Assembly: GCA_965203055.1 (NCBI GenBank)
Contig: OZ241863.1
Coordinates: 3,328,001 to 3,392,000, forward strand
DNA: 64,000 bases
Direction: 5' to 3'
Source of the DNA: Spirochaetia bacterium
GTDB taxonomy: Bacteria; Spirochaetota; Spirochaetia; SZUA-6; Bin103
The notes beneath the pieces are model-generated. The model saw nothing but the letters and a program-made list of their open reading frames with translations, ran no database searches and had not been told where the DNA came from. The translations under genes and the position numbers were made by a program. Position 1 is the first letter of the stretch, and every line of letters starts with the position of its first letter. Positions 3,497 to 61,099 of the stretch are shown piece by piece.

Positions 3497-4597
3497 ATGG
3501 CCGCCACTGATCTAGCCGAGATCGAGGCGCTGGCCGCGGCCGGCGAGTCGGAGACCCTGGAGTTGAAGAAGTCCACCGGCGAGCGCCGTACCGGCATGAA
3601 GACCGAACCCCTGCACGAGCAGTTCCGATGGGAAAACCAACCTGTCCCGGACTGGACGGTCGACGATCTCGATCAGACCGAGATCGTTCGTACGCTCGAG
3701 GACGCGATTCGCCACGGGCGGGCGTCAGAGCCCGGAACGCGTGACCCGGCGGAGCTGCTGCGTGGATTCGGTTTGCTCCGCGCCGACCGGCTGCTCCGCG
3801 CCGCAGTCGTGTTGTTCGGCAGATCCGATCGGCTGAGCGCCGAGTACCCGCAATGCATGCTGCGGATTGCCAAGTTCGACGGTACCTCTCGCACCGACGA
3901 GTTTCTGGACAACCGGCAGGTTCACGGCAACGCGTTTTCTCTCCTGGGCAGCGCGGAGCGCTTCTTTCGTGAGAACCTGCCGATCGCCGGCCGCATTGAG
4001 CCCGACCGTTTCGAACGGGTGGATGAGCCGCGGTATCCGCCTCCTGCTCTGCGTGAGGCGCTTGCCAACGCGATCTGTCACCGGGATTACACCATGGGCG
4101 GCGGGTCGGTGGCGGCGGCGATCTACGACGACCGCCTCGAAGTGACTTTTTCGGGTTCCCTGCCCTTCGGGCTCACCGCGGAGGCATTGTTTCAGCCGCA
4201 CGAATCGCGGCCTTGGAACCCGCTGATCGCGCGAGCCTTCTATCTTCGCGGGTTCATCGAGCAGTGGGGGCGCGGTACGATTGAGCTGCGGGAACTGACC
4301 ACCAGCGCCGGACTGCCGGCGCCGGAAATCGAGGATGCCGGCGGTTGTGTCACGGTGCGCTTCAGACCGGGCACGTACATGCCGCGGCGCGTCGAGCGGG
4401 AGGTGACCGAGCGCCAGCGGGAGATCCTCACCCTGCTGGCCGCAGCCGGCGCGGGATTGGCGTTCCGGGAGATCGTCCGGCAATTGGATAATTCACCTAA
4501 TTGGTGGCAGATACGAGACGATCTGAGGGGCCTGCGAGCGCTCGGCTTGGCGACTGTCGAGGGACGTGGCCGAGGAGCGCGATGGAAGCGGCAATAA
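3497..4597 (+). CDS. Schlafen/AlbA_2 - HATPase_c_4 (RecG C-terminal-like) - wHTH protein with most of the AlbA_2 domain apparently deleted
   Basis: GESETLELKKS start jumps directly to the RWENQP linker; ALREALANAICHRDY, WNPLIARAFY, EQWGRG; C-terminal HTH ending GRGRGARW. Confidence 0.75.
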   Translation: MAATDLAEIEALAAAGESETLELKKSTGERRTGMKTEPLHEQFRWENQPVPDWTVDDLDQTEIVRTLEDAIRHGRASEPGTRDPAELLRGFGLLRADRLLRAAVVLFGRSDRLSAEYPQCMLRIAKFDGTSRTDEFLDNRQVHGNAFSLLGSAERFFRENLPIAGRIEPDRFERVDEPRYPPPALREALANAICHRDYTMGGGSVAAAIYDDRLEVTFSGSLPFGLTAEALFQPHESRPWNPLIARAFYLRGFIEQWGRGTIELRELTTSAGLPAPEIEDAGGCVTVRFRPGTYMPRRVEREVTERQREILTLLAAAGAGLAFREIVRQLDNSPNWWQIRDDLRGLRALGLATVEGRGRGARWKRQ

Positions 4598-24048: not shown

Positions 24049-24096
24049 CGAGGTGGCCCTCTTCCGGGTCACCGAGCGGCTCACGGCCGGCTCAAC

Positions 24097-25619
24097 GGGC
24101 GCACTTCCAATTTGTAGGTAGGCCCAAATAGAGAAGCCCTCCCAGCGACAGGTGATGTAACATCAGGCCGTCACTGGGAGGGCAACATATGTGTGATTCA
24201 TTGGTAACCGAGATTCTCAACTACTGCAAGGCCACCTGTGGTCTCGAACTGGGCCGCGCTAGCGGTCCCCACGACCTGTTGCGGGCAGAACTGAGTCTCC
24301 TCAAGTGCTTGGTGCGCCTGTGCCGCGCCGCCATGGTGGAGTGGTTCAAGGAACTGGGCCGCGATTACCGCGGCGCCACGGTCCAGCGCAACGGGGTGTC
24401 GTATCGGTTTGTCGGCCACCGCTCCAAGACCCTGCACGGACTGTTCGGGACGGTACCCTACGAACGGGCCTACTACGCCAGCGGTAGCGGCCAGGGCTGG
24501 GCGCCGTTGGATGAGCGGCTCGGCATCAAGCGCGGCCATACGCCGGGCTGCCAGTACTTTCTGAGTCAGTTCGTAGCGCGCCAGGCGCACGCAGAGAGTC
24601 TGCGGCAGTTTCACGAGGTGTTCCGCGCCGACGGCGGGGAGCTGGTGTCGGAGAAGAAGGCGTTCACGATGGTGCAGGAGGTAACGGAGGGGTTGGAACG
24701 GCAGCGCCAGCAGGAGGTGGACAACTACCAGCAGACTGCGGCGGGGCCGGAGCTGCACGAGCCGATTGGCGGGACGGTGGCGGTATGCATCGACGCGGGG
24801 AAGGTGCCGGTGCGCGGCAAGGAGCGGGTAGATGATGCCGGGAAGAAGCGCTACGAGCGGGAGTACCGGGACGCCAAGGTGGCGGTGGTGGCGGCGGTGG
24901 AGTGGGACGCTGAGGAGCAGGAGGCGCAGTGCAGCAGCAAGCCGAGCTACGTGGCGGCGAGCGAGCATGCCGACCAGTTCTTCCCGCGCATCGAAGTGGA
25001 GCTGAAACGGCGCTGCGGCGAGGGGGCGGCGCGGCAACTGGTAGTGCTGGCCGACGGGGCGGGATGGATTTGGGATCGGGCGGAGACCTGGGCGGCAGGG
25101 GGGCTGCGGGTGTGGTACATCCTGGATTTCTGGCACGCCTGCGAGCATCTCGCGGAGGCGAGTCGGAGCGTCTACGGGGAGAGGAGCAAGCAGGCAGAGG
25201 AATGCTTTCGGAGGTGGCGGACGATGCTGCGCGGCAGTCGGGCGGGGGAAGTGATAGAGGAGCTGGAGGAGTTGCGCGACGGCGGGGGGTTGAGTGCCCG
25301 GCAGCGGCACGAGGTGCAGGGGGAGATCAACTACTTGAAGAGCAACCAGGGACGGATGGACTACCGGCGGTACCGGCGGGAGGGGCTGCCGATCGGCAGT
25401 GGGGCGGTGGAGAGTACGTGCAAGAACATGGTGGGGGCGCGGCTGAAGGGGAGCGGGATGATCTGGTCGTTGGGAGGGGCGCAGGGGATGCTGCAGCTCT
25501 GCACCTCGGTGAAGAGCGGGCGGTTCAAAAGGGACTACGCGAGCCTGCTGTCCGCCTCGGTGCCGCAGGAGGCCCAGCCACAGGCCGCCTGACGCTACCT
25601 ACGTTTTGGAAGTGCGCCC
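24097..25619 (+). mobile_element. ISKra4-family (prokaryotic Mutator-like) insertion sequence, complete
   Basis: IRL GGGCGCACTTCCAATTTGTAGGTAG; IRR (reverse complement) GGGCGCACTTCCAAAACGTAGGTAG; 9-bp target duplication CGGCTCAAC at 24088-24096 and 25620-25628. Confidence 0.92.
24189..25592 (+). CDS. ISKra4-family DDE transposase
   Basis: CIDAG, LADGAGWIW, LDFWHACEHL, GLPIGSGAVESTCK, RLKGSGMIWS. Confidence 0.9.
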   Translation: MCDSLVTEILNYCKATCGLELGRASGPHDLLRAELSLLKCLVRLCRAAMVEWFKELGRDYRGATVQRNGVSYRFVGHRSKTLHGLFGTVPYERAYYASGSGQGWAPLDERLGIKRGHTPGCQYFLSQFVARQAHAESLRQFHEVFRADGGELVSEKKAFTMVQEVTEGLERQRQQEVDNYQQTAAGPELHEPIGGTVAVCIDAGKVPVRGKERVDDAGKKRYEREYRDAKVAVVAAVEWDAEEQEAQCSSKPSYVAASEHADQFFPRIEVELKRRCGEGAARQLVVLADGAGWIWDRAETWAAGGLRVWYILDFWHACEHLAEASRSVYGERSKQAEECFRRWRTMLRGSRAGEVIEELEELRDGGGLSARQRHEVQGEINYLKSNQGRMDYRRYRREGLPIGSGAVESTCKNMVGARLKGSGMIWSLGGAQGMLQLCTSVKSGRFKRDYASLLSASVPQEAQPQAA

Positions 25620-25739
25620 CGGCTCAACCCTGTTGTTGACATCCTGTTGCCGTAGTATGTTCGTTTCCAATGCTCGGTGGCGGCCCCTAGCCCCCAAGCC
25701 GCCCGGCTCGATGCCGACCTGGCAGGAGGGGATGCCCCG

Positions 25740-26291
25740 ATGGAGAACCTGAGCTTGACCATAGTGCTTACCGGCGTAGGGGTGGTGGTTGCCTTGGTGG
25801 CCGCTGCTGTCGGCGCTACCTGGAAGGTGACCACCAAGATCACCGACACGGACAAGGCAACCCGCAAGGAGATTTCCGACGAGTCAAGGGATGCCCACAA
25901 GGGGATCACCGAGAACATCAAAACCGTAGACGGCAAGATCGACGCCCTGCGCGATAGCGTAGACGCCAAGATCGACAGGACCGACGGCAAGATCGACGCC
26001 CTGCGCGATAGCGTAGATGCCAAGATCGACAGGACCGACGGCAAGATCGACGCCCTGCGCGATAGCGTAGACGCCAAGATCGGCGCCTTGAGCAAGGATG
26101 TAGGCGACCTGCGCGATAGCGTAGACGCCAAGATCGACAGGACCGACGGCAAGATCGACGCCCTGCGCGATAGCGTAGACGCCAAGATCGGCGCCTTGAG
26201 CAAGGATGTAGGCGACCTGCGCGTTGACATAGCGCGTTTGGTTGGCCCCCGCGCGCAGGACCCGGCCCGAAATGAGCGAAACCGCCCATAG
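25740..26291 (+). CDS. Membrane-anchored coiled-coil protein with KID-type repeats
   Basis: SD GGAGG; N-terminal TM helix; 18-aa repeats DGKIDALRDSVDAKIDRT. Confidence 0.7.
   Translation: MENLSLTIVLTGVGVVVALVAAAVGATWKVTTKITDTDKATRKEISDESRDAHKGITENIKTVDGKIDALRDSVDAKIDRTDGKIDALRDSVDAKIDRTDGKIDALRDSVDAKIGALSKDVGDLRDSVDAKIDRTDGKIDALRDSVDAKIGALSKDVGDLRVDIARLVGPRAQDPARNERNRP
25929..26222 (+). repeat. 54-bp/108-bp near-perfect coding tandem repeats
   Basis: Units start at 25929, 25983, 26037 and 26145 (GACGGCAAGATCGACGCCCTGCGCGATAGCGTAGACGCCAAGATC...). Confidence 0.9.
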
Positions 26292-52803: not shown

Positions 52804-53817
52804 GTGCAGGACGCCGTCAACGCCGTGGTGCTGCTTACCAACTTCCTGGTCGTCCCGGCCGCAGTCTACGGGTGCCAGCTCGCGCTCGGCGCGCTCGGCG
52901 TTACCCTGGTGTACGGCGTGCTGCGCTTCTCCAACTTCGCGCACGGCGAGATCATGGCGTTCGGCGCCATGATCACCATCCTGGGCACCTGGCTGCTGCA
53001 GTCCTGGGAGGTGGGAATCGCGCCGTTGCCGACCGCGTTGCTGGCCCTGCCGGTCGCGATCGCGTTTACCGGCGGCCTGTGTCTGCTCTCCGACCGCTGG
53101 GTGTATCGCTTCTACCGGCGCAAGAAGGCGCAGCCGGTCATCTTCCTGGTGGCCTCGGTGGGCGTGATGTTCGTGCTCAACGGGCTGATCCGCTTCATCA
53201 TCGGCCCCGACGACCAGGTGTTCACTGACGGGACGCGGTTTCTGGTCAACGCGCGCCAGTTCAAGGCGGCCACCGGGCTCGCCGAGGGCCTTGCGATCAA
53301 GACCACGCAGACGATCACCGTCGCGGTAACGATAATCCTGGTGCTGTGGCTGTTCTGGTTCCTAGGCCGCACGCGCACCGGCAAGTCGATGCGCGCCTAC
53401 TCGGACAACGAGGACCTGGCCCTGCTGTCCGGCATCAACCCGGAACGGGTGGTGGCGGTCACCTGGCTGATCGTCGGCGCCCTGGCGGCGGTGGCGGGCA
53501 CGTTGTACGGCCTGGACAAGAGCTTCAAGCCGTTCACCTTCCTGTCGCTGCTGCTGCCGATCTTCGCCGCCGCCATCGTCGGCGGCCTGGGAAGTCCGCT
53601 CGGCGCCATCGCGGGGTCGTTCGTGGTAGCCTTCTCGGAGGTGTTGCTCACCTATCCCTACAAGAAGTTCCTGAGCTATCTGGGGCCGGAGGGCTGGCGG
53701 CCGGAGGGCCTGGTGCAGCTGCTGGCCACCGACTACAAGTTCGCCGTCTCGTTCTTCATCCTGGTGGTGGTGCTGCTGGTGCGGCCCACCGGCATCTTCA
53801 GCGGCAAGTCGACGTGA
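52804..53817 (+). CDS. Branched-chain ABC transporter permease (LivH type)
   Basis: NFAHGE, GKSMRA, IVGGLGS, RPTGIF. Confidence 0.92.
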   Translation: MQDAVNAVVLLTNFLVVPAAVYGCQLALGALGVTLVYGVLRFSNFAHGEIMAFGAMITILGTWLLQSWEVGIAPLPTALLALPVAIAFTGGLCLLSDRWVYRFYRRKKAQPVIFLVASVGVMFVLNGLIRFIIGPDDQVFTDGTRFLVNARQFKAATGLAEGLAIKTTQTITVAVTIILVLWLFWFLGRTRTGKSMRAYSDNEDLALLSGINPERVVAVTWLIVGALAAVAGTLYGLDKSFKPFTFLSLLLPIFAAAIVGGLGSPLGAIAGSFVVAFSEVLLTYPYKKFLSYLGPEGWRPEGLVQLLATDYKFAVSFFILVVVLLVRPTGIFSGKST

Positions 53818-55145
53818 GCGGCGCTCTGACCGGCGCGGCCGCGCGGATTCCCCGCAAGCCGGCCCTGTTCGCGGTGATGGCGGCGCTCATCTGCCTGGTG
53901 GGCCTGCTGCAAAGCTGGTCGCTGGCGCTGGCAATCCTCAACCTGTGCCTGATCTCGGCCATCATGACGCTCGGCGTGAACATCCAGTGGGGCTACGCCG
54001 GCCTGTTCAACGCCGGCATCATGGGCTTCGCCGCGATCGGCGGACTGGCCGGCGTGCTGGTGTCGATGCCGCCGGTGGCGGCCGCCTGGCGCGCCGGCGG
54101 CGCCGGCGTACTGGTGGCGCTGGGGATGGCGGCGCTGGCCGTCGTCGGGGTGCTCTTCCTGCGCCGCCGCATCCGGCATCCGGTCTACCGCCGGCTGGCG
54201 GTGGGCCTGCTGCTGGTCGGCGGCTACGCCGCGGCGCGGGCCGTGTTCGGGCCGGCGGTGGAGGCAATCGAAGCGGTGGACCCCACCACTACCGGCTATC
54301 TCGGCGGGTTCGGCCTGCCCATCGTCCTGTCGTGGCTGGTGGGCGGCGCGCTGGCCGCCGGAGCCGCCTGGATCTGCAAGATCAGCCTCAGCCTGCGGTC
54401 CGACTATCTCTCCATCGCCACCCTCGGCATCTCCGAGATCATCGTCGCGTTCCTCAAGTACGAGGAGTGGCTCACCCGCGGCGTGAAGAACGTCAACGGC
54501 CTGCCGCGTCCGGTGCCGTACGAGGTAGACCTGCAGAACGCGGTGTGGTTCCGGGAGTGGGCCGCCAGTCTCGGCGCGGCGCCCGTGGAGCTGTCGTCGA
54601 TCGTGGTGAAGCTCTGCTACGCCGGCCTGTTCCTGCTCGCGCTGGTCATTCTGATGTGGCTTTCCGAAACCGCGCTGCGGTCGCCGTGGGGGCGGATGAT
54701 GCGCGCGGTGCGCGACAACGAAGAGGCCGCCCGCGCCATGGGCAAGGACGTCACCGCCCGCCACCTGCAGGTGTTCGTCCTGGGCTCGGCGGTAATCGGC
54801 ATCGCCGGCGCCATGCTGACCACCCTCGACGGACAGTTCACCCCCGCCTCCTACCAGCCGATGCGCTTCACCTTTCTGATCTGGGTAATGGTGATCGTGG
54901 GCGGCTCCGGCAACAACTGGGGCGCCCTCCTCGGCGGCTTCGTGATCTGGTTCTTCTGGGTGCAGGCCGAACCGATCGGGCTGCGCCTGATGGAGCTGGT
55001 CACCGCCTCGCTGGCTGCCGACAGCTCGCTCAAGGCCCATCTCCTGGGCAGCGCCGCGCACATGCGTCCGGTAGTCATGGGCATGGTGCTGCTGCTCGTC
55101 CTGCGCTTCGCCCCGCGCGGCCTGATCCCCGAAGACCGCCGCTGA
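53814..55145 (+). CDS. Branched-chain ABC transporter permease (LivM type)
   Basis: GYAGLFN, LRSDYLSIATLG, SPWGRMMRAVRDNE, PRGL. Confidence 0.92.
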   Translation: MSGALTGAAARIPRKPALFAVMAALICLVGLLQSWSLALAILNLCLISAIMTLGVNIQWGYAGLFNAGIMGFAAIGGLAGVLVSMPPVAAAWRAGGAGVLVALGMAALAVVGVLFLRRRIRHPVYRRLAVGLLLVGGYAAARAVFGPAVEAIEAVDPTTTGYLGGFGLPIVLSWLVGGALAAGAAWICKISLSLRSDYLSIATLGISEIIVAFLKYEEWLTRGVKNVNGLPRPVPYEVDLQNAVWFREWAASLGAAPVELSSIVVKLCYAGLFLLALVILMWLSETALRSPWGRMMRAVRDNEEAARAMGKDVTARHLQVFVLGSAVIGIAGAMLTTLDGQFTPASYQPMRFTFLIWVMVIVGGSGNNWGALLGGFVIWFFWVQAEPIGLRLMELVTASLAADSSLKAHLLGSAAHMRPVVMGMVLLLVLRFAPRGLIPEDRR

Positions 55146-55249
55146 CGACGACACGGTGGGGCGCACTTCCAAAAATGGGGGTAAGCGTCGGGCCGCTTGG
55201 CGGCCAAGCTCAAAGTCCCAGTGTAGATGACGTTTCTCGGCGATCTTGA

Positions 55250-56611
55250 TCACCGGTCTACCGGCGCCTGACGATCCTCGCCGGGGCGGTCGAATCCGGC
55301 GCCGGCGTGGCGGTAGCGGTGATGGGCGGCGCACAGCAGGCGGAGATTGTTCGGCTCGGCGGCGCCGCCGCAGGCATACGGCACCACGTGATCGATCTGC
55401 AGCAGGTGTTGGGAGCCGCAACGGCGCCCGCTGGTGCGGTCCACGTAGCGGCAGCGGCCCTGGTCGCGCCGCCACACCTCGCGCTTGACCGCCGCCGGGA
55501 TGGCGCGGCCGGTCACGCCCGGCTTCGCTGCCGAAGTCCGGGTCCGCGGCGGCGCCGCCGGCTGCGCGCACGCCGCAGCCTGCCGGTCGAGGCGCCGCGT
55601 CTTCGGCGCCGAAGTTATGTCGCCCCCCGGCTTCGCTGCCGAAGTGTCCGGGCGGTCAGCGGCTTCGTCTCCCGGCTGCGCCGCCGCCTGAGCCGATGCC
55701 TTCGCCCCCGAAGGAACGGCGCTGTCCGCGCTGGCCTCTTGCTTCGCTGCCGAAGCGGCTCCGCGAGCCGAGGCCGCCTGCGTCTTCGGCGCCGAAGTTT
55801 GCTCGGCGCCTTTGGCCGGCGCGGCGCGCCGCCCGCGCGGCGGCCGGGCCGGGTCGTGGCGGTCGAGCCCTTCCCGCACCAGCCGCCCCATGAGCTGCCC
55901 CATCGTCAGGTGCGGATCGACGTGCGACAGGAGGCCCTGGAGCCGCTCCAAGCCGCGCCGGCACTCATCGTCGATCACCGCCTTGAGCTCCCAGCGCCCG
56001 CCGCCCAGGGGCCGCACCCGCTCCGCCGGCGCCGCCAGCTCCGGGTCCACCTCGGCCAGCAACTGCGTCACCTCCCGGCTGCTCTTGCCGGACGCCTGCT
56101 CCACCAGCTCCCGCCGCGCCTCCGCGTCCAGCACCGGCGGCGCCGCCGCCGCCGGCTTCCGCTCCGCCGGCCGCGGCGGCGCCGAGCCCTCCTGCGACTG
56201 AGCGGCAGCCCCGAACCCGGTCCCGCGCGGCGCGCTACGCGCCGCGCGTTCCTTCTTGCGCTCCTGCCGGTCGAAGGCGTTCTGCAACTGCGCCGCCGCG
56301 TTCAGCGTCATCGTGCCATTCTGCAGGCGCTCCCGCACGCCCTCGACGTCCGCGCAGAGGCGCATCGCCTTGATGCGCCGCCACGCCGCGGCGTCGCTGT
56401 AGCCCAACTCACGCACCGCGTAATCGAACAGACTCGAGAACCCGCGCCGCAGGTACAGACGCCGCTTCTGAATCTCGCGCAGGTGGTCGATCACGACCAC
56501 TTCGAGATGGTGTTCGATGCCGGACAGTTCCTTGGTCCGCTCCAACAGGCGGTCGTCTGAGAGGGCGGATACGGTAGTGGTGACGGCCCCGTCTGAACCC
56601 TGTTTGTACAT
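55250..56611 (-). CDS. HNH endonuclease with DUF222-like helical N-terminus
   Basis: LSDDRLL..HLREIQKRRLY..GFSSLFDY..LGYS..AAWRRI; C-terminal VWRRDQGRC...C...IDHVVP..GG....NLRLLCAAHH. Confidence 0.88.
   Translation of the reverse strand: MYKQGSDGAVTTTVSALSDDRLLERTKELSGIEHHLEVVVIDHLREIQKRRLYLRRGFSSLFDYAVRELGYSDAAAWRRIKAMRLCADVEGVRERLQNGTMTLNAAAQLQNAFDRQERKKERAARSAPRGTGFGAAAQSQEGSAPPRPAERKPAAAAPPVLDAEARRELVEQASGKSSREVTQLLAEVDPELAAPAERVRPLGGGRWELKAVIDDECRRGLERLQGLLSHVDPHLTMGQLMGRLVREGLDRHDPARPPRGRRAAPAKGAEQTSAPKTQAASARGAASAAKQEASADSAVPSGAKASAQAAAQPGDEAADRPDTSAAKPGGDITSAPKTRRLDRQAAACAQPAAPPRTRTSAAKPGVTGRAIPAAVKREVWRRDQGRCRYVDRTSGRRCGSQHLLQIDHVVPYACGGAAEPNNLRLLCAAHHRYRHAGAGFDRPGEDRQAPVDR
55523..55797. 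repeat. Six 14-bp CTTCG-N4-CGAAG palindromes with unique spacers inside the HNH gene
   Basis: Copies start at 55523, 55601, 55631, 55700, 55742 and 55784. Confidence 0.8.
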
Positions 56612-56617
56612 GACATA

Positions 56618-56646
56618 AGTATAACCATGGAAACTACTTGAGTCAA
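56618..56646 (-). promoter_or_regulatory. Near-consensus sigma70 promoter for the HNH gene
   Basis: TTGACT-17 bp-TATACT, ending 6 nt before ATG 56611. Confidence 0.75.
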
Positions 56647-56755
56647 GTTTTCAGCCCGGAAGATGCCACATGCTGGCGTGACTCGGCGGCGCATTTCGAA
56701 GCGGCTGGACGTTCCTTCAGATGCTACTGCCGAGATGTCGCCGGCGTCGAGCGGC

Positions 56756-56932
56756 AGGGTTCTTCTTACGGACCCAGGCGGCCTCGTCGATCTCCTGGTC
56801 GAGGAAGAGGTCGCAGGCGGTGGAACTGTCGCTCCAGCCGCCGACGTCGAGCGCGGCGCGGTCCATGGCGGCGTGCAGCGCGGCGCGGTACTCGTAGTAC
56901 GCCTTTCCGGCGGCTTCAAGGGCGGGACAGGT
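56756..56932 (-). pseudogene. Fragment of a type IIG/IIL-like restriction-methyltransferase C-terminal region
   Basis: Hand translation TCPALEAAGKAYYEYRAAL|HAAMDRAALDVGGWSDSSTACDLFLDQEIDEAAWVRKKNP; no start; family recognised from memory. Confidence 0.65.
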
Positions 56933-57055
56933 ACCAGCAAATTAGATTAAGAAGTGCGCCCACACGGTGGCTTGACCCCTCTCATCGACCGGCATAGTGT
57001 GCGGCCTGCGGGCAAGTGAAGGAAGCAAGCAGAAGGTACGTAATGATGGTGTACG

Positions 57056-60000
57056 GTGGATAGGGTTACCGTCATACCCTGCGGGCCGGCCGTCAACGAG
57101 AGCGAGCGCAGGGCCATCGAACGGCTCAAGGCCGGCCTCATAGGGCACAGGGGCGATGGCGTCTGGGTGCTCCTGACGAACCTTACCCTGTCCACGACCC
57201 ATCGGCTCCAATCTGACGAAATCGACATCGTGGCGATTGGCCCGCCGGGCGTCCGCGTGATCGAAGTCAAGCACTGGACGGCGTCGTGGGTACGGAAGCA
57301 CGGCGATCGCGTCGCTCAGGAAGCCGACCGCGTGACTGCCAAGGCGAAGAAGGTCGGCACCATGCTGCGCGCGAAGATGGAACAGCTTCCGCACGTGGCC
57401 GGCGTATTCCTCGTCACCGAAGTTCCGAGCAAAGTCGAGCGGCTGCCCGACGAAGTCGTTCGGGGTGTTCGCTTTCATACGTTCAAGACCTGGCGGGGTG
57501 CGGTCGGCGCCGATTCTTCGGAGGTGTTGACCCCGCAGCAGATCAGGGCGGCGGCCAGTCTGCTGGAGCCGAGGAGCGCGGTAGCCCTGCACGGCGAGTT
57601 GCGGCGGCTGGGCGGTTACGCGCGCCTGGAGTTGCAGACCGACCCGGCCGAACGATTCCATAGAATCTACCGGGGCACCCACGCTACCCGGCAGGATCGG
57701 GTGGTGTTGCATCTCTATGATCTGTCGGACTTGTCGGCTGGCGACGAGTCGAACGCGGAACACCGGGCGATGCGTGAGTTCAAGGCCCTCCACCGACTGC
57801 AACAGTACTCGTGGGCGCCGCGCATCGTCGACTCGTTTCAGGATGCGCCGGGCTATCTGGAGGAGATGAAGTTCTTCACCATGGCCGATCCGGCAGCCCC
57901 GTCTATCGCGGAACGGGCCGAAGACGACTCGTGGACCTCTCAAGCCCGTGTCAGCTTTGCCCGCGACGCCGTTCGCGCGTTGCGCGAGTTGCACGCGGCA
58001 AGCGCGGACGAAGAACCGATGTTACATCGCAATCTGACACCCCAAACGGTGCTGGTACGGTCCGACAATTCCCCGATTCTGACCGGCTTTGAATACACGA
58101 GAATTCCGACGGACGTGACCGTCGCATCCACCGGTTCGAGCGCGGCATGGGACGCATCGGCAGCGCCCGAGATCCGCTCCCAAGGCCGCGGCGCCGCGGA
58201 CCATCGATCGGACGTGTACTCCTTGTGCGCCTCGCTACGGGCGTTGTTCGCCGGAGGCGACGACGATAGCCATGCAGCCATCCGAATCCTGGACGGCGGC
58301 ACCAAGCAGGAGCCGTCCGCACGGGCCGAGCTGCCGGAACTGGACCGGGCGCTGTCGGCACTGCTGGGTGAGTCGATTCCGCCGCCGCCTCAGCCGCCCG
58401 CGCGGTTCTGGACCGAGGATCAGGTCGTGCGGTTCGCCGGAGGCGACTATCGCATCGTCGCTCGTCTCGGTTCAGGCGGCGTTGGGACCACCTTCAAGGT
58501 GGTGGAGATCGACCGCGACACGAAAGAGGACCTGGGCACCTATGTAGCCAAGGTGGTCCACGACCAGGAGACTGGCAAACGGGTCCTACGCGCGCACAGC
58601 TTGGCCCGATCGCATCTGCATCACTCGTCAGGACTGTCGAAAATCTACCAAGTCGATTCGCAGTGGCGGGATAACGGCGTCGCGGCGCTGCTGACCTGGA
58701 TCGACGGCGAGCCGCTTGATGAGTTCGCGGGACTGCTCCGCGAGCTTGCCGAGGACTCGCAGGAAGCGACCGACGAGGCGTTGGCGCTGCGCTGGTTGCA
58801 GGCGGCATGCGCGGCGCTCGGCGAGTTGCACCGCAACCGCTTGGTGCATGGCGACGTCAGTCCCCGCAACCTGATCCTGTCGGGCGCCGACGTGGTGCTG
58901 ACCGACTACGACTGCGTGACCAGGATCGATCAGCCGCTGGGGACGCCGGGCACCGTTCCGTACTGCTCGCCGTCCTGTCAGGAGGGTCTGCCGGCCGCGC
59001 CGTCCGACGACCTCTACGCGCTGGCGGCGAGCGTCTTCTTCGTCCTGTTCGCCAAGGAACCGTTTCAGTACCAGGGCGTACGGGCCAAGGACCGCGGACT
59101 GAACTGGGACGGTATACCGCGCGAGCAGTACCCGGTGCTGGCCGAATTCCTGGACCGGGCGACGGCGCCCGACCGCAGCCAACGTTACGCCACCGCCGCA
59201 GAAGCGCTCAGCGCCTTGGACTCCGCGCCCGGCGAAGGCCCGGCGGTGTCACGGGAGCCGGACGGCACGCCGCAGGAGACCGAGCCATCGCAACCGCTGG
59301 AACGGCACGAGAACGAAGTCGAGTGGCTGAAGTCGGTGCTGCAGTCCTACCCCGGTTCGCGGTGGGGCAATCGCGAGACGCGCGGGCTGGACACCGACTT
59401 CGCCGCCCACACCTACGTTGAGACATCACTGGAGCAGACGCTGTACGACGAACTTCGAGATCGGCGCGTCAGCCTCGTGGTGCTGTGCGGAAATGCCGGC
59501 GACGGCAAGACCGCGATCCTCCAACGGCTTGCCAAACGCCTGGGACTTGGCGACCACCGCTCCGCCACCCGCATCGTGAACGGTCAGACCGATGACGGCT
59601 TGACCGTGCGCATGAACCTGGACGGTTCCGCTGCGTGGGAGGGCCGCTCGGCGCATCAACTGCTGAACGAGATACTCGAACCGTTCCAGCACGGTCGCCC
59701 GGACGAGGACTGCGCTCATCTGCTGGCGATCAACGATGGCCGGCTGTTGGAGTGGATCGACGACGTGGAAGGCGATCATGATGGGCCGACGCCGTTGACG
59801 CAGGCACTCACCGACTTTCTCGAAGATCGAGATAAGTCGGATTCTCACGTGCGGTTCGTCAACCTGAACCAGCGTTCGCTCGTCGGCGGCATAGCGGCGG
59901 ACGGAAAGAGCATCGACACCCGCTTTCTCGATGACTTGGTGGACGGGCTCTACGGCGGTGAACGAGTGGCCGCCACCTGGGCTCCGTGTCGGACCTGTTC

Positions 60001-61099
60001 GGCTCAGGACCATTGCGCGGTCTTTCGCGCAGCGCGCAGCTTTGGGCCCGGCCGTCTTGCTGACGACGACGTTCGTACCCGTGCTCGGCAGCGGTTGTTC
60101 GAGGCGCTGCAGGCCGTTCACCTGCGCGGCGAAACGCATGTCACCGTACGCGAGTTGCGCGCTGCTCTGGTCTATATTCTGTTCGGCCTGCAGTACTGCA
60201 GCGACTACCACACTGCGGGGCAGGAGGCTGCGTTGCCGTACTGGGACCGTGCCTTCGACGCCGGTTCGCCCGGCCGTCAGGGTGACGTGCTGCGCGAATT
60301 GATACGCTTCGATCCTTCCCTCGATGCGCATCCGCACATCGACCGCGTGCTGCTGCACCCGCCGGAGGACGCCGGAGATAGCAGCGCGCCAAGACGCTCA
60401 GATGCTCTGCAGCCCAAGGAACGCCACGCGCAACTGGCTTCGGAGCGGCGCCGCGTATACTTCGAGTGGACTGACGAAGAGATCGTGCAGGTGGCCGGAG
60501 ACCCCGAAGCGTTGGGGCTGGCTCAAGGGCGGCACCTGCGTGAGTTCCGGGACGTGGCTATCGCCGACGACGCTGCGCTCGGCAAGCTGGCCCGGCGATT
60601 GTGCGGTGGCATTTCGCGGCTCGAAGCTCTGCCGCCGCAAGCTCTGGACGCGCGCGATGCCGTGCCGCTCCGGATCACGCCGCGCACTCCCATAGAGACG
60701 GCGTTCTGGGTGGAAAAATCGCCCGCTGCCTTCCAACTGCAACCCGACCTCCCTGCCTTCTCCGACCTGGATATCCTGCACCGTCAGGCAGCTCTGATCT
60801 ATCGCTATCGTGACGGGGGCGAGGAACGTCTGCGACTTGGCTACGATCTGTTCTCCCTGCTACTGGAGATGGAGGAAGGCTATCAGTTGGGAGACGTAGC
60901 CACCGACGACACCTTCGCTCAGCTTGCCATCTTCGTGCAGCGTCTGGTACGCGAGGACGAACGCCGCATGATGGCGTGGACCCCGATGAGGGAGGACACG
61001 ATCTACGAGCTGTCCGCCGACCTCGATGAAGCTGCCGGAGGTCCGCGGCAGCTTCTCAGAATAGACCTCCACAACAAGGACTCGGACGATGCCGAATAG
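57056..61099 (+). CDS. NERD nuclease - pseudokinase - Ser/Thr kinase - P-loop NTPase fusion (MADS Mad6-like; C-terminus DndF-like)
   Basis: NESE..EIDIV..IEVKHW (NERD); HRNL (degenerate kinase); GSGGVG, HGDVSPRN, DYD; CGNAGDGKT, AINDGRL. Confidence 0.85.
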   Translation: MDRVTVIPCGPAVNESERRAIERLKAGLIGHRGDGVWVLLTNLTLSTTHRLQSDEIDIVAIGPPGVRVIEVKHWTASWVRKHGDRVAQEADRVTAKAKKVGTMLRAKMEQLPHVAGVFLVTEVPSKVERLPDEVVRGVRFHTFKTWRGAVGADSSEVLTPQQIRAAASLLEPRSAVALHGELRRLGGYARLELQTDPAERFHRIYRGTHATRQDRVVLHLYDLSDLSAGDESNAEHRAMREFKALHRLQQYSWAPRIVDSFQDAPGYLEEMKFFTMADPAAPSIAERAEDDSWTSQARVSFARDAVRALRELHAASADEEPMLHRNLTPQTVLVRSDNSPILTGFEYTRIPTDVTVASTGSSAAWDASAAPEIRSQGRGAADHRSDVYSLCASLRALFAGGDDDSHAAIRILDGGTKQEPSARAELPELDRALSALLGESIPPPPQPPARFWTEDQVVRFAGGDYRIVARLGSGGVGTTFKVVEIDRDTKEDLGTYVAKVVHDQETGKRVLRAHSLARSHLHHSSGLSKIYQVDSQWRDNGVAALLTWIDGEPLDEFAGLLRELAEDSQEATDEALALRWLQAACAALGELHRNRLVHGDVSPRNLILSGADVVLTDYDCVTRIDQPLGTPGTVPYCSPSCQEGLPAAPSDDLYALAASVFFVLFAKEPFQYQGVRAKDRGLNWDGIPREQYPVLAEFLDRATAPDRSQRYATAAEALSALDSAPGEGPAVSREPDGTPQETEPSQPLERHENEVEWLKSVLQSYPGSRWGNRETRGLDTDFAAHTYVETSLEQTLYDELRDRRVSLVVLCGNAGDGKTAILQRLAKRLGLGDHRSATRIVNGQTDDGLTVRMNLDGSAAWEGRSAHQLLNEILEPFQHGRPDEDCAHLLAINDGRLLEWIDDVEGDHDGPTPLTQALTDFLEDRDKSDSHVRFVNLNQRSLVGGIAADGKSIDTRFLDDLVDGLYGGERVAATWAPCRTCSAQDHCAVFRAARSFGPGRLADDDVRTRARQRLFEALQAVHLRGETHVTVRELRAALVYILFGLQYCSDYHTAGQEAALPYWDRAFDAGSPGRQGDVLRELIRFDPSLDAHPHIDRVLLHPPEDAGDSSAPRRSDALQPKERHAQLASERRRVYFEWTDEEIVQVAGDPEALGLAQGRHLREFRDVAIADDAALGKLARRLCGGISRLEALPPQALDARDAVPLRITPRTPIETAFWVEKSPAAFQLQPDLPAFSDLDILHRQAALIYRYRDGGEERLRLGYDLFSLLLEMEEGYQLGDVATDDTFAQLAIFVQRLVREDERRMMAWTPMREDTIYELSADLDEAAGGPRQLLRIDLHNKDSDDAE

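Follow-up and report, generated by a model that had tools for sequence, protein, structure and literature searches.

A 64,000-nucleotide (nt) stretch of the genome of a Spirochaetia bacterium (contig OZ241863.1, positions 3,328,001 to 3,392,000; hereafter the window) contains a 1,803-bp cassette at 55159-56961, which starts 13 nt past the stop codon of a permease-type open reading frame (ORF). Between its termini, which match those of a complete insertion sequence (IS) of the ISKra4 family elsewhere in the window, it carries an HNH nuclease gene and the decayed 3′ end of a drmMI gene. An earlier note, made from the letters of the window, had described a transposase-less element of this size with inverted ends and a perfect duplication, inserted 13 bp after a livM-type stop, and reading of the sequence confirmed all of these coordinates. 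The features on which the following account relies are, in order along the cassette and then at the resident IS:

55151-55158, left copy of the target-site duplication, 8 bp, ACACGGTG, read from the sequence
55159-55169, left terminus, 11 nt, GGGCGCACTTC, whose reverse complement at 56951-56961 is the right terminus
55159-55199, plus strand, cassette end of the type of the right inverted repeat (IRR), matched by blastn to the IRR of the IS over 41 nt at 80.5% (E 6.5e-4)
55229-56709, minus strand, HNH unit of ~1.48 kb, the stretch common to dispersed copies (blastn against 15 loci and boundary alignments; limits approximate)
55250-56611, minus strand, intact HNH ORF, 453 aa, with Pfam HNH at residues 397-435
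55523-55797, no strand assigned, hairpin-forming motif of 14 nt, CTTCG-NN-GCCGAAG, present five times where the HNH ORF encodes the linker
56618-56646, minus strand, HNH gene promoter of the sigma-70 type, TTGACT-17-TATACT, agreeing with the consensus at 10 of 12 positions
56717-56941, minus strand, drmMI pseudogene, the decayed 3′ end of the DISARM gene drmMI (MmeI-like N6-methyltransferase)
56930-56961, minus strand, cassette end of the type of the left inverted repeat (IRL), with the terminal 11 nt as in the IS, a 6-nt insertion and then IRL-alignable sequence
56962-56969, right copy of the target-site duplication, 8 bp, ACACGGTG, read from the sequence
24097-25619, plus strand, complete ISKra4-family IS and candidate helper, with a transposase ORF at 24189-25592 (467 aa)
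24088-24096 and 25620-25628, duplication flanking the IS, 9 bp, CGGCTCAAC, read from the sequence

Boundaries and contents of the cassette

The termini of the cassette form a perfect 11-nt inverted pair that is identical to both termini of the resident IS, and the exact 11-mer occurs four times in the window, i.e., at both ends of the cassette and both ends of the IS. When one mismatch is allowed, the window holds 8 matches versus 3.47 expected, a number reached in 2 of 100 shuffles; the four matches with one mismatch were considered as further cassette or IS ends and ruled out, the sequence adjoining them not being IS-like. Inverted pairs as such are common in this G+C-rich window, which contains 670 perfect 11-nt pairs spaced 300-4000 nt apart, only one of which, the cassette pair, is adjoined by a perfect 8-nt direct repeat. 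Thirty simulated windows, with a mean of 245.7 inverted pairs each, yielded no pair with an adjoining 8-nt repeat. Because the cassette is the only inverted pair with an adjoining duplication, and the simulations produced none, we regard it as a real feature rather than a product of chance.

The prokaryotic Mutator-like (p-MULT) elements have inverted repeats of 18-39 bp, a terminal C and 8- or 9-bp duplications (Guerillot et al. 2014, PMC3942029). The ends of the cassette agree with those of the ISKra4/p-MULT 4 group: they finish in ...GCGCCC, are alignable over ~24-41 nt and are bordered by an 8-bp duplication. At the left end, the likeness to the IRR extends as far as the segment where the transposase gene of the IS has its stop codon. 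At the right end, a six-way alignment (the two IS ends, the two cassette ends and one end each of two related loci, L001 and L002, described below) showed an IRL-like sequence with the 6-nt insertion after approximately position 9-11, the inner part of which can be aligned to the IRL of the IS and to the end of L002. The earlier note had matched the left end to the IRR of this IS and had proposed an ISKra4-type parentage, i.e., a prokaryotic relative of Mutator; both points hold, given the family-typical ends, the 8-bp duplication and an intact transposase of the cognate type 31 kb away. This transposase, encoded at 24189-25592, scores 216.8 bits against the NCBIfam ISKra4 model NF033572 (cut-off 205; profile positions 28-421 of 422).

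No transposase and no decayed remnant of one was found within the cassette, as the note had described. The best tblastn match of the IS transposase had E = 0.15 over 33 aa, the Pfam and NCBIfam searches of the single long ORF returned HNH alone and no transposase family, and blastn of the whole IS against the cassette matched the ends alone, leaving the interior unmatched. The note's description of the contents, an HNH gene with its own promoter and a foreign gene fragment, was likewise confirmed, and the fragment proves to be the 3′ end of drmMI.

The open frame of this fragment (74 codons, 56720-56941, minus strand) matches no family of its own in Pfam or NCBIfam. A search of longer proteins returned 68 relatives among 297 candidates, mostly ~1,300 aa in length and mostly carrying N6_Mtase, Eco57I, MmeI_TRD and MmeI_Mtase domains. 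The fragment aligns to the proteins P0142 and P0127 over residues 1211-1300 with a gap of 31 residues, so that two segments (parent residues ~1210-1227 and 1260-1300) are represented, and P0142, the parent in this comparison, is a full-length DISARM DrmMI (PADLOC model PDLC02643, 1278.5 bits, profile positions 6-1314 of 1347). In an adjacent frame, the distal part of the fragment resembles by eye the C-terminal residues and stop of P0123, P0125 and P0142. The fragment reads as one that reaches the natural drmMI stop and is broken by two deletions, i.e., the visible 31-codon deletion and a second, presumed one, together with a probable frameshift. The boundary shared by the HNH units lies ~10 nt after the drmMI stop codon, and in P0012, from another contig, a less-deleted drmMI fragment is fused to the HNH protein in a single ORF. 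Within the fragment, 74 nt (56804-56877) are 85.1% identical to a gene annotated as 'hypothetical protein' on a plasmid of Candidatus Thiodictyon syntrophicum (NZ_CP020372.1), which is the sole match of the cassette in the plasmid collection.

The Pfam HNH domain of the window protein scores 28 bits (cut-off 21.4) and is matched by 41 of 47 family members. Ahead of this C-terminal domain, the protein begins with a helical region resembling DUF222, followed by another folded domain and a disordered repeat linker. An AlphaFold model built on the 47-sequence alignment has a mean pLDDT (the predicted local distance difference test) of 77.3; the means of 10-residue blocks are at least 84 over approximately residues 11-130, 161-260 and 371-430 and below 50 over 277-350, so that the first two of these regions are modelled as confident helical or mixed domains and 277-350 as a disordered linker. 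A Foldseek search of the model against the Protein Data Bank (PDB) gave no match at E <= 0.001, the best weak matches being HNH domains (Cap5, McrA, Gme), and a sequence-profile search against the PDB likewise matched the HNH parts alone and left the N-terminal domains unmatched. Membership in DUF222 (PF02720) was considered and rejected: the window protein has no match even at E <= 1, and only 3 of the 47 family members have one, the best with E 0.012. An Atlas language-model look-up placed the protein at 0.94 to a cluster named after DUF222, 12% of whose members carry DUF222, which we treat as a lead only.

The linker is also where the hairpin motif resides. Five sites (seven strand-matches) were found versus 0.01 expected, and every match in the window lies inside the linker region of the HNH ORF. 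On the coding strand, the motif encodes a repeated T/A-S-A-A/P-K peptide. Of 15 related loci, 13 contain the motif, with several occurrences in each copy. The promoter of the HNH gene is the sole promoter-like site found in 54900-57200 and is conserved in other HNH copies; since 6 nt separate the -10 hexamer from the ATG, the HNH mRNA is probably leaderless.

The HNH repeat family and related cassette copies

The HNH gene belongs to a large family. A word-indexed search identified 1,842 relatives of the protein at E <= 1e-3 among 8,000 scored candidates, and the best 120 of these are 71-100% identical to the window protein. An exhaustive search of representatives at 50% identity gave 16,941 clusters at E <= 1e-3, of which 874 reach E <= 1e-30. 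Twelve of the best 120 homologue clusters, including that of the window protein, are located on one contig of 4,557,819 bp; with this contig taken to be the genome of the window, that genome contains at least 12 HNH paralogue clusters.

Scanning of related metagenome-assembled genomes (MAGs) with the HNH protein gave at least 15 loci, i.e., ten in OZ241907.1, four in OZ251573.1 and one short match in another MAG. Comparison of these loci delimits the unit shared by the dispersed copies, which includes ~95 nt ahead of the ATG and ~20 nt after the stop codon. Beyond the HNH sequence, the copies lie in unrelated surroundings. Pfam matches were obtained for 36 of the 44 ORFs in these flanks and are metabolic, transport, regulatory and DNA-repair functions together with one IS3-type integrase and one Eco57I-type methylase, and an ISKra4 transposase is not among the 44. 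Terminal repeats or a target duplication belonging to the HNH unit itself were sought by eye in the boundary alignments, and none was recognised; a short GCCGAG-type word occurs near both boundaries of the unit.

Eight of the ten HNH loci in OZ241907.1 and all four in OZ251573.1 lack an IS end. The earlier note had proposed a gene-capture vehicle that spreads a nuclease. The cassette does carry a gene fragment and an HNH gene with its own promoter; the spreading does not fare as well, because eight of the ten related-MAG copies have no IS end, and the nuclease therefore spreads largely without an IS-ended vehicle.

A tree of 120 proteins separates two clades, of 93 and 27 members, each with a support of 98, and places the window protein in the larger one. 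P0057 and P0062, which come from the contig of L001 and L002 and match their start or tail residues, are in the same 93-protein clade, and seven other full-length copies in OZ241907.1 have the N-terminus of the other clade. Copies from other contigs are scattered among the 12 paralogues of the window's genome, with 10 label changes compared to a mean of 10.2 after shuffling. The short internal and long terminal branches have the pattern of an old burst rather than of recent activity. The ratio of nonsynonymous to synonymous substitution rates (dN/dS) lies within 0.35-0.64 for every one of the 45 pairs formed by 10 HNH copies, and 0.38-0.40 between the window copy and L001 or L002, indicating that the coding capacity of the gene has been maintained. 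The HNH gene thus belongs to a repeat family that is large, dispersed and maintained by selection, and that mostly propagates apart from the cassette by a separate mechanism.

Partial HNH copies lie beside full ones at three loci (L003:5591-7213, L006:4036-4236 and L009:4014-4197). At L003, a downstream stretch repeats the segments 1382-2176 and 3497-3770 and is followed by a 3′ HNH fragment. Such partial copies and duplicated flanks suggest recombination or repeated insertion at HNH sequences. At another locus (L013:5161-6075), tandem units of ~111 nt, ~82-93% alike, are found downstream of the HNH match, at a distance of a few hundred bases; a spacing of 111 nt between repeats is also seen in the linker of the window copy.

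Two of the 15 loci are related to the cassette beyond the HNH unit. L002 is alone among them in having a left IS-type end; it comprises the IRL, a drmMI fragment with the identical 31-codon deletion and the HNH gene, and lacks the IRR. L001 is alone in having a right IS-type end; it begins where the HNH unit itself has its left boundary, terminates with an IRR that carries a single mismatch and lacks the IRL and the fragment. The window copy, L001 and L002 occupy three different sites, so that other copies, whose existence mattered to the earlier note's proposal, do exist, each without one end. The possibility that L001 and L002 are the two halves of one cassette that an inversion had split was ruled out, as the flanks beside their IS ends differ. 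An IS end is present in all three copies of the window's sub-clade that were compared as DNA (the window copy, L001 and L002) and in none of the seven full-length copies of the other sub-clade. The IRL-fragment-HNH junction of one locus and the HNH-IRR junction of the other leave no room for a transposase, and the transposase-less arrangement therefore arose once and predates all three copies.

Probable origin and movement of the cassette

We consider it likely that the cassette is a non-autonomous derivative of an ISKra4-family IS, which captured a piece of chromosome once and is moved by a transposase supplied in trans, with no need for the HNH protein. The cassette retains ~20-45 nt of each IS end and no transposase, and would be placed among the prokaryotic Mutator-like elements of p-MULT 4. 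The last ~140 codons of drmMI, together with the HNH unit ~10 nt downstream, would have come to lie between two ISKra4-type IS ends, either by deletion or by template switching, and the captured drmMI 3′ end would later have decayed by deletions and a frameshift. Once formed, the cassette may have moved by cut-and-paste, using a transposase provided in trans by a related ISKra4-type IS, e.g., the one at 24097-25619, and its insertion 13 nt behind the permease gene would have generated the 8-bp duplication. The cargo looks like a single captured piece of chromosome because the HNH unit follows the natural drmMI stop by ~10 nt. Mobilisation in trans, uptake of the cargo in one piece and the dispensability of HNH for transposition are what we infer from these data.

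The resident IS is a plausible helper. The protein search did not retrieve the exact sequence of its 467-aa transposase; the best match is 94% identical. A second transposase paralogue, on the same 4.56-Mb contig, is truncated to 378 aa and shares 84% identity across 63% of the query. None of the best 120 of 179 transposase relatives is on the chromosomes bearing L001 and L002, which fits the two loci being stranded and decaying. The plasmid collection contains no match to the IS.

Several observations weigh against this derivation. The resident IS may not be the true helper, since its inner ends are only ~80% like those of the cassette, and the 6-nt insertion in the IRL-type end of the window copy may hinder transposase binding or disable that end. 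The window copy alone is complete, and a second intact cassette with its own duplication was not seen among the 15 loci; the differing flanks beside the L002 IRL and the L001 IRR mean that these two are not halves of one insertion. L001 is bracketed by an imperfect 54-nt direct repeat (L001:3835-3888 and L001:5387-5438, 88.9%), for which DDE transposition offers no explanation. Finally, most HNH units spread without IS ends, and the cassette could be a by-product of the mobility of the HNH unit.

One rival explanation is a reversed order of events, in which a transposase-less IS derivative with a drmMI fragment existed beforehand and was later invaded by a self-propagating HNH unit, the nuclease being a squatter. 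The HNH unit does have recurrent boundaries of its own at many unrelated sites without IS ends, the left boundary of L001 coincides with the unit's own left boundary, and the partial copies beside full ones at L003, L006 and L009 suggest repeated insertion or recombination at HNH sequences. However, the position of the unit ~10 nt past the natural drmMI stop is what would be expected of an ordinary neighbourhood taken whole, and the junction between fragment and HNH recurs in L002 and P0012. Moreover, neither the 11-mer scan of the window nor the blastn searches with IS and cassette revealed a cassette lacking HNH, and the unit, in which no target duplication or terminal repeat was recognised by eye, has no demonstrated mechanism of self-insertion. 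We therefore regard the reversed order as rather unlikely. Still less credence is given to the idea that a complete, passenger-bearing IS inserted here, made the duplication and then lost its transposase by deletion in place. ISKra4 elements with genes besides the transposase do exist (Guerillot et al., PMC3942029), and a duplication alone says nothing of what the element contained at insertion, whereas the transposase-less junctions shared by L001 and L002 place the loss before their split from the window copy, and tblastn found no transposase remnant in the cassette; such a course of events is very improbable.

A further question is whether the HNH gene is a selected cargo with a role at the level of the host or the element, i.e., in defence, in addiction or in homing that aids the spread of the cassette, as the earlier note had suggested. 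The intact ORF, the strong and conserved promoter and the moderate constraint (the dN/dS values given above for 45 pairs) are all compatible with such a role, the captured fragment derives from a defence gene, and the insertion is directly upstream of a gene with NERD, kinase and STAND regions that has PADLOC matches. Against this, the PADLOC match of the HNH protein itself is marginal (a generic type II restriction enzyme model, E 5e-4), and no immunity or antitoxin partner gene is evident inside the cassette, so that the suggested role in defence or addiction found no support. At least 12 diverged paralogue clusters in a star-like, interleaved tree fit a selfish repeat better than a defence gene, and the flanks of the HNH copies are unrelated housekeeping genes, a distribution that does not appear to fit classical homing. 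Such a role at the level of the host or the element thus seems quite unlikely.

The derivation by a single capture and mobilisation in trans has a bolder extension, in which the cassette is the amplification vehicle of the whole HNH sub-clade and most of the at least 12 paralogues, as well as ~90 close clusters in related MAGs, reside in drmMI-tagged cassettes bounded by inverted repeats. We hold this to be doubtful. If true, it would mean that a bacterial Pack-MULE-like family had burst to high copy number, in a partnership of a DDE-mobilised cassette with a nuclease gene, and that the HNH nuclease may aid spread or persistence, e.g., through breaks that promote copying into sister sites.

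Known systems, insertion site and neighbouring sequence

Elements that are bounded by IS or Tn ends, lack a transposase and carry passenger genes are termed mobile insertion cassettes (MICs) in ISfinder, and MIC231 is such a cassette of the IS231/IS4 group. The cassette described here is a MIC and thus belongs to an established class. It shares with other MICs the termini of a known IS family, a family-typical duplication, the absence of a transposase, a passenger coding sequence and a cognate-type transposase elsewhere in the genome. MICs are also recognised by their occurrence at several sites or by mobilisation in trans, and here three related copies are found at three sites, with both ends and the duplication in the window copy alone. 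It differs from them in its parent family, ISKra4, and in its cargo, which is partly a gene fragment and partly itself a repeat element. Further MICs are represented by those of the Tn3 family in Xanthomonas and by a qnrS2 cassette in Aeromonas (PMC5444012).

The earlier note had suggested that the pairing of such a cassette with a nuclease may not have been described before. As transposase-less, IS-ended cassettes, such elements are the known MICs; what stands of the claimed novelty is that no transposase-less ISKra4 cassette was found among the ISKra4 literature matches listed; the supplementary tables of PMC3942029 might include non-autonomous derivatives. That paper uses the word 'nonautonomous' once, for plant Pack-MULEs alone. 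The literature match joining 'mobile insertion cassette' and HNH concerns fosfomycin resistance, and no bacterial counterpart of Pack-MULEs was present among the literature matches listed.

The comparison with plant Pack-MULEs is apt as an analogy of mechanism alone, and the cassette, being prokaryotic and short-ended, was not accepted as a member of that family, to which the earlier note had likened it. Both belong to the Mutator/p-MULT transposase superfamily (PMC3942029), are non-autonomous and carry a captured fragment of a host gene, and both are inserted between genes in a promoter-proximal position. Plant Pack-MULEs are eukaryotic and have long terminal inverted repeats, whereas the cassette is prokaryotic and has short ends (~20-45 nt) and an 8-bp duplication. 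In addition, one complete copy of the cassette was seen, and its cargo, unlike that of a plant Pack-MULE, includes an intact and presumably expressed gene. The passenger-bearing ISKra4 elements, of which four with extra genes besides the transposase have been reported (Guerillot et al., PMC3942029), resemble the cassette in their terminal C and 8-9-bp duplication; they keep their transposase, whereas the cassette has none.

A different relationship is suggested by the HNH unit. REP13E12 of mycobacteria (Gordon et al. 1999) is named as a repetitive element in PMC10589994. Like REP13E12 and other DUF222-HNH repeats, the HNH unit is ~1.4 kb in length, combines an N-terminal helical region with a C-terminal HNH domain, occurs in many diverged copies and has no recognised terminal repeats or transposase. 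Unlike REP13E12, it has no Pfam DUF222 match, comes from a different host lineage and has one sub-clade tied to IS ends. The resemblance is drawn from domain architecture, the multi-copy habit and the language-model look-up, the last of which is a lead only.

The cassette is ordinary in kind; what is unusual is its cargo, which belongs to an HNH repeat family that looks selfish and whose capture can still be read from the sequence. If our derivation is correct, the cassette would be a clean prokaryotic case in which an element of the Mutator superfamily lost its transposase and gained a captured host-gene fragment, as in the genesis of Pack-MULEs, with the donor context (the drmMI 3′ end and its downstream neighbour) still readable, and ISKra4 would join the families with MICs. 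The HNH unit is of wider interest, as it bears a promoter, is probably leaderless, is selectively maintained and exists in at least a dozen diverged copies per genome, one of them tractable here. The practical value is modest and consists of better repeat annotation in MAGs and a candidate system for the mobilisation of ISKra4 elements in trans.

The genes on either side of the insertion are the following:

53346-55145, permease-type, livM-like ORF, Pfam BPD_transp_2 (branched-chain amino-acid permease type), with TGA at 55143-55145
57056-61099, plus strand, NERD-kinase-STAND gene, 1,347 aa, with NERD nuclease-related, protein kinase and STAND/AAA NTPase regions

The right end of the cassette lies 94 nt upstream of the start of the NERD-kinase-STAND gene, whose product has PADLOC matches to the PD-T4-6, MkoA and SspF models and which we regard as a candidate defence gene. 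Some members of the ISKra4 group insert ahead of sigma-A promoters, at a distance of 15-17 nt from the -35 box (PMC3942029). The -35-like hexamer nearest to the cassette, TTGACC (56972-56977), is located 10 nt past its end, not 15-17. It is part of a weak promoter-like pair, TTGACC-17-TAGTGT (56972-57000), that faces the NERD-kinase-STAND gene, agrees with the consensus at 8 of 12 positions and does not reach the threshold of the promoter scan. Next to the resident IS, TTGACA at 25636-25641 lies 16 nt past the IRR, which is the distance reported for promoter-targeting elements of the group; no -10 hexamer was found at a spacing of 16-18 nt from it, and the promoter scan lists none there. The region adjoining the IS contains an ORF of tandem peptide repeats with a DALRDSVDAKI-type unit (25677-26291, plus strand), opposite which an antisense frame (25595-26230, minus strand) is equally open.

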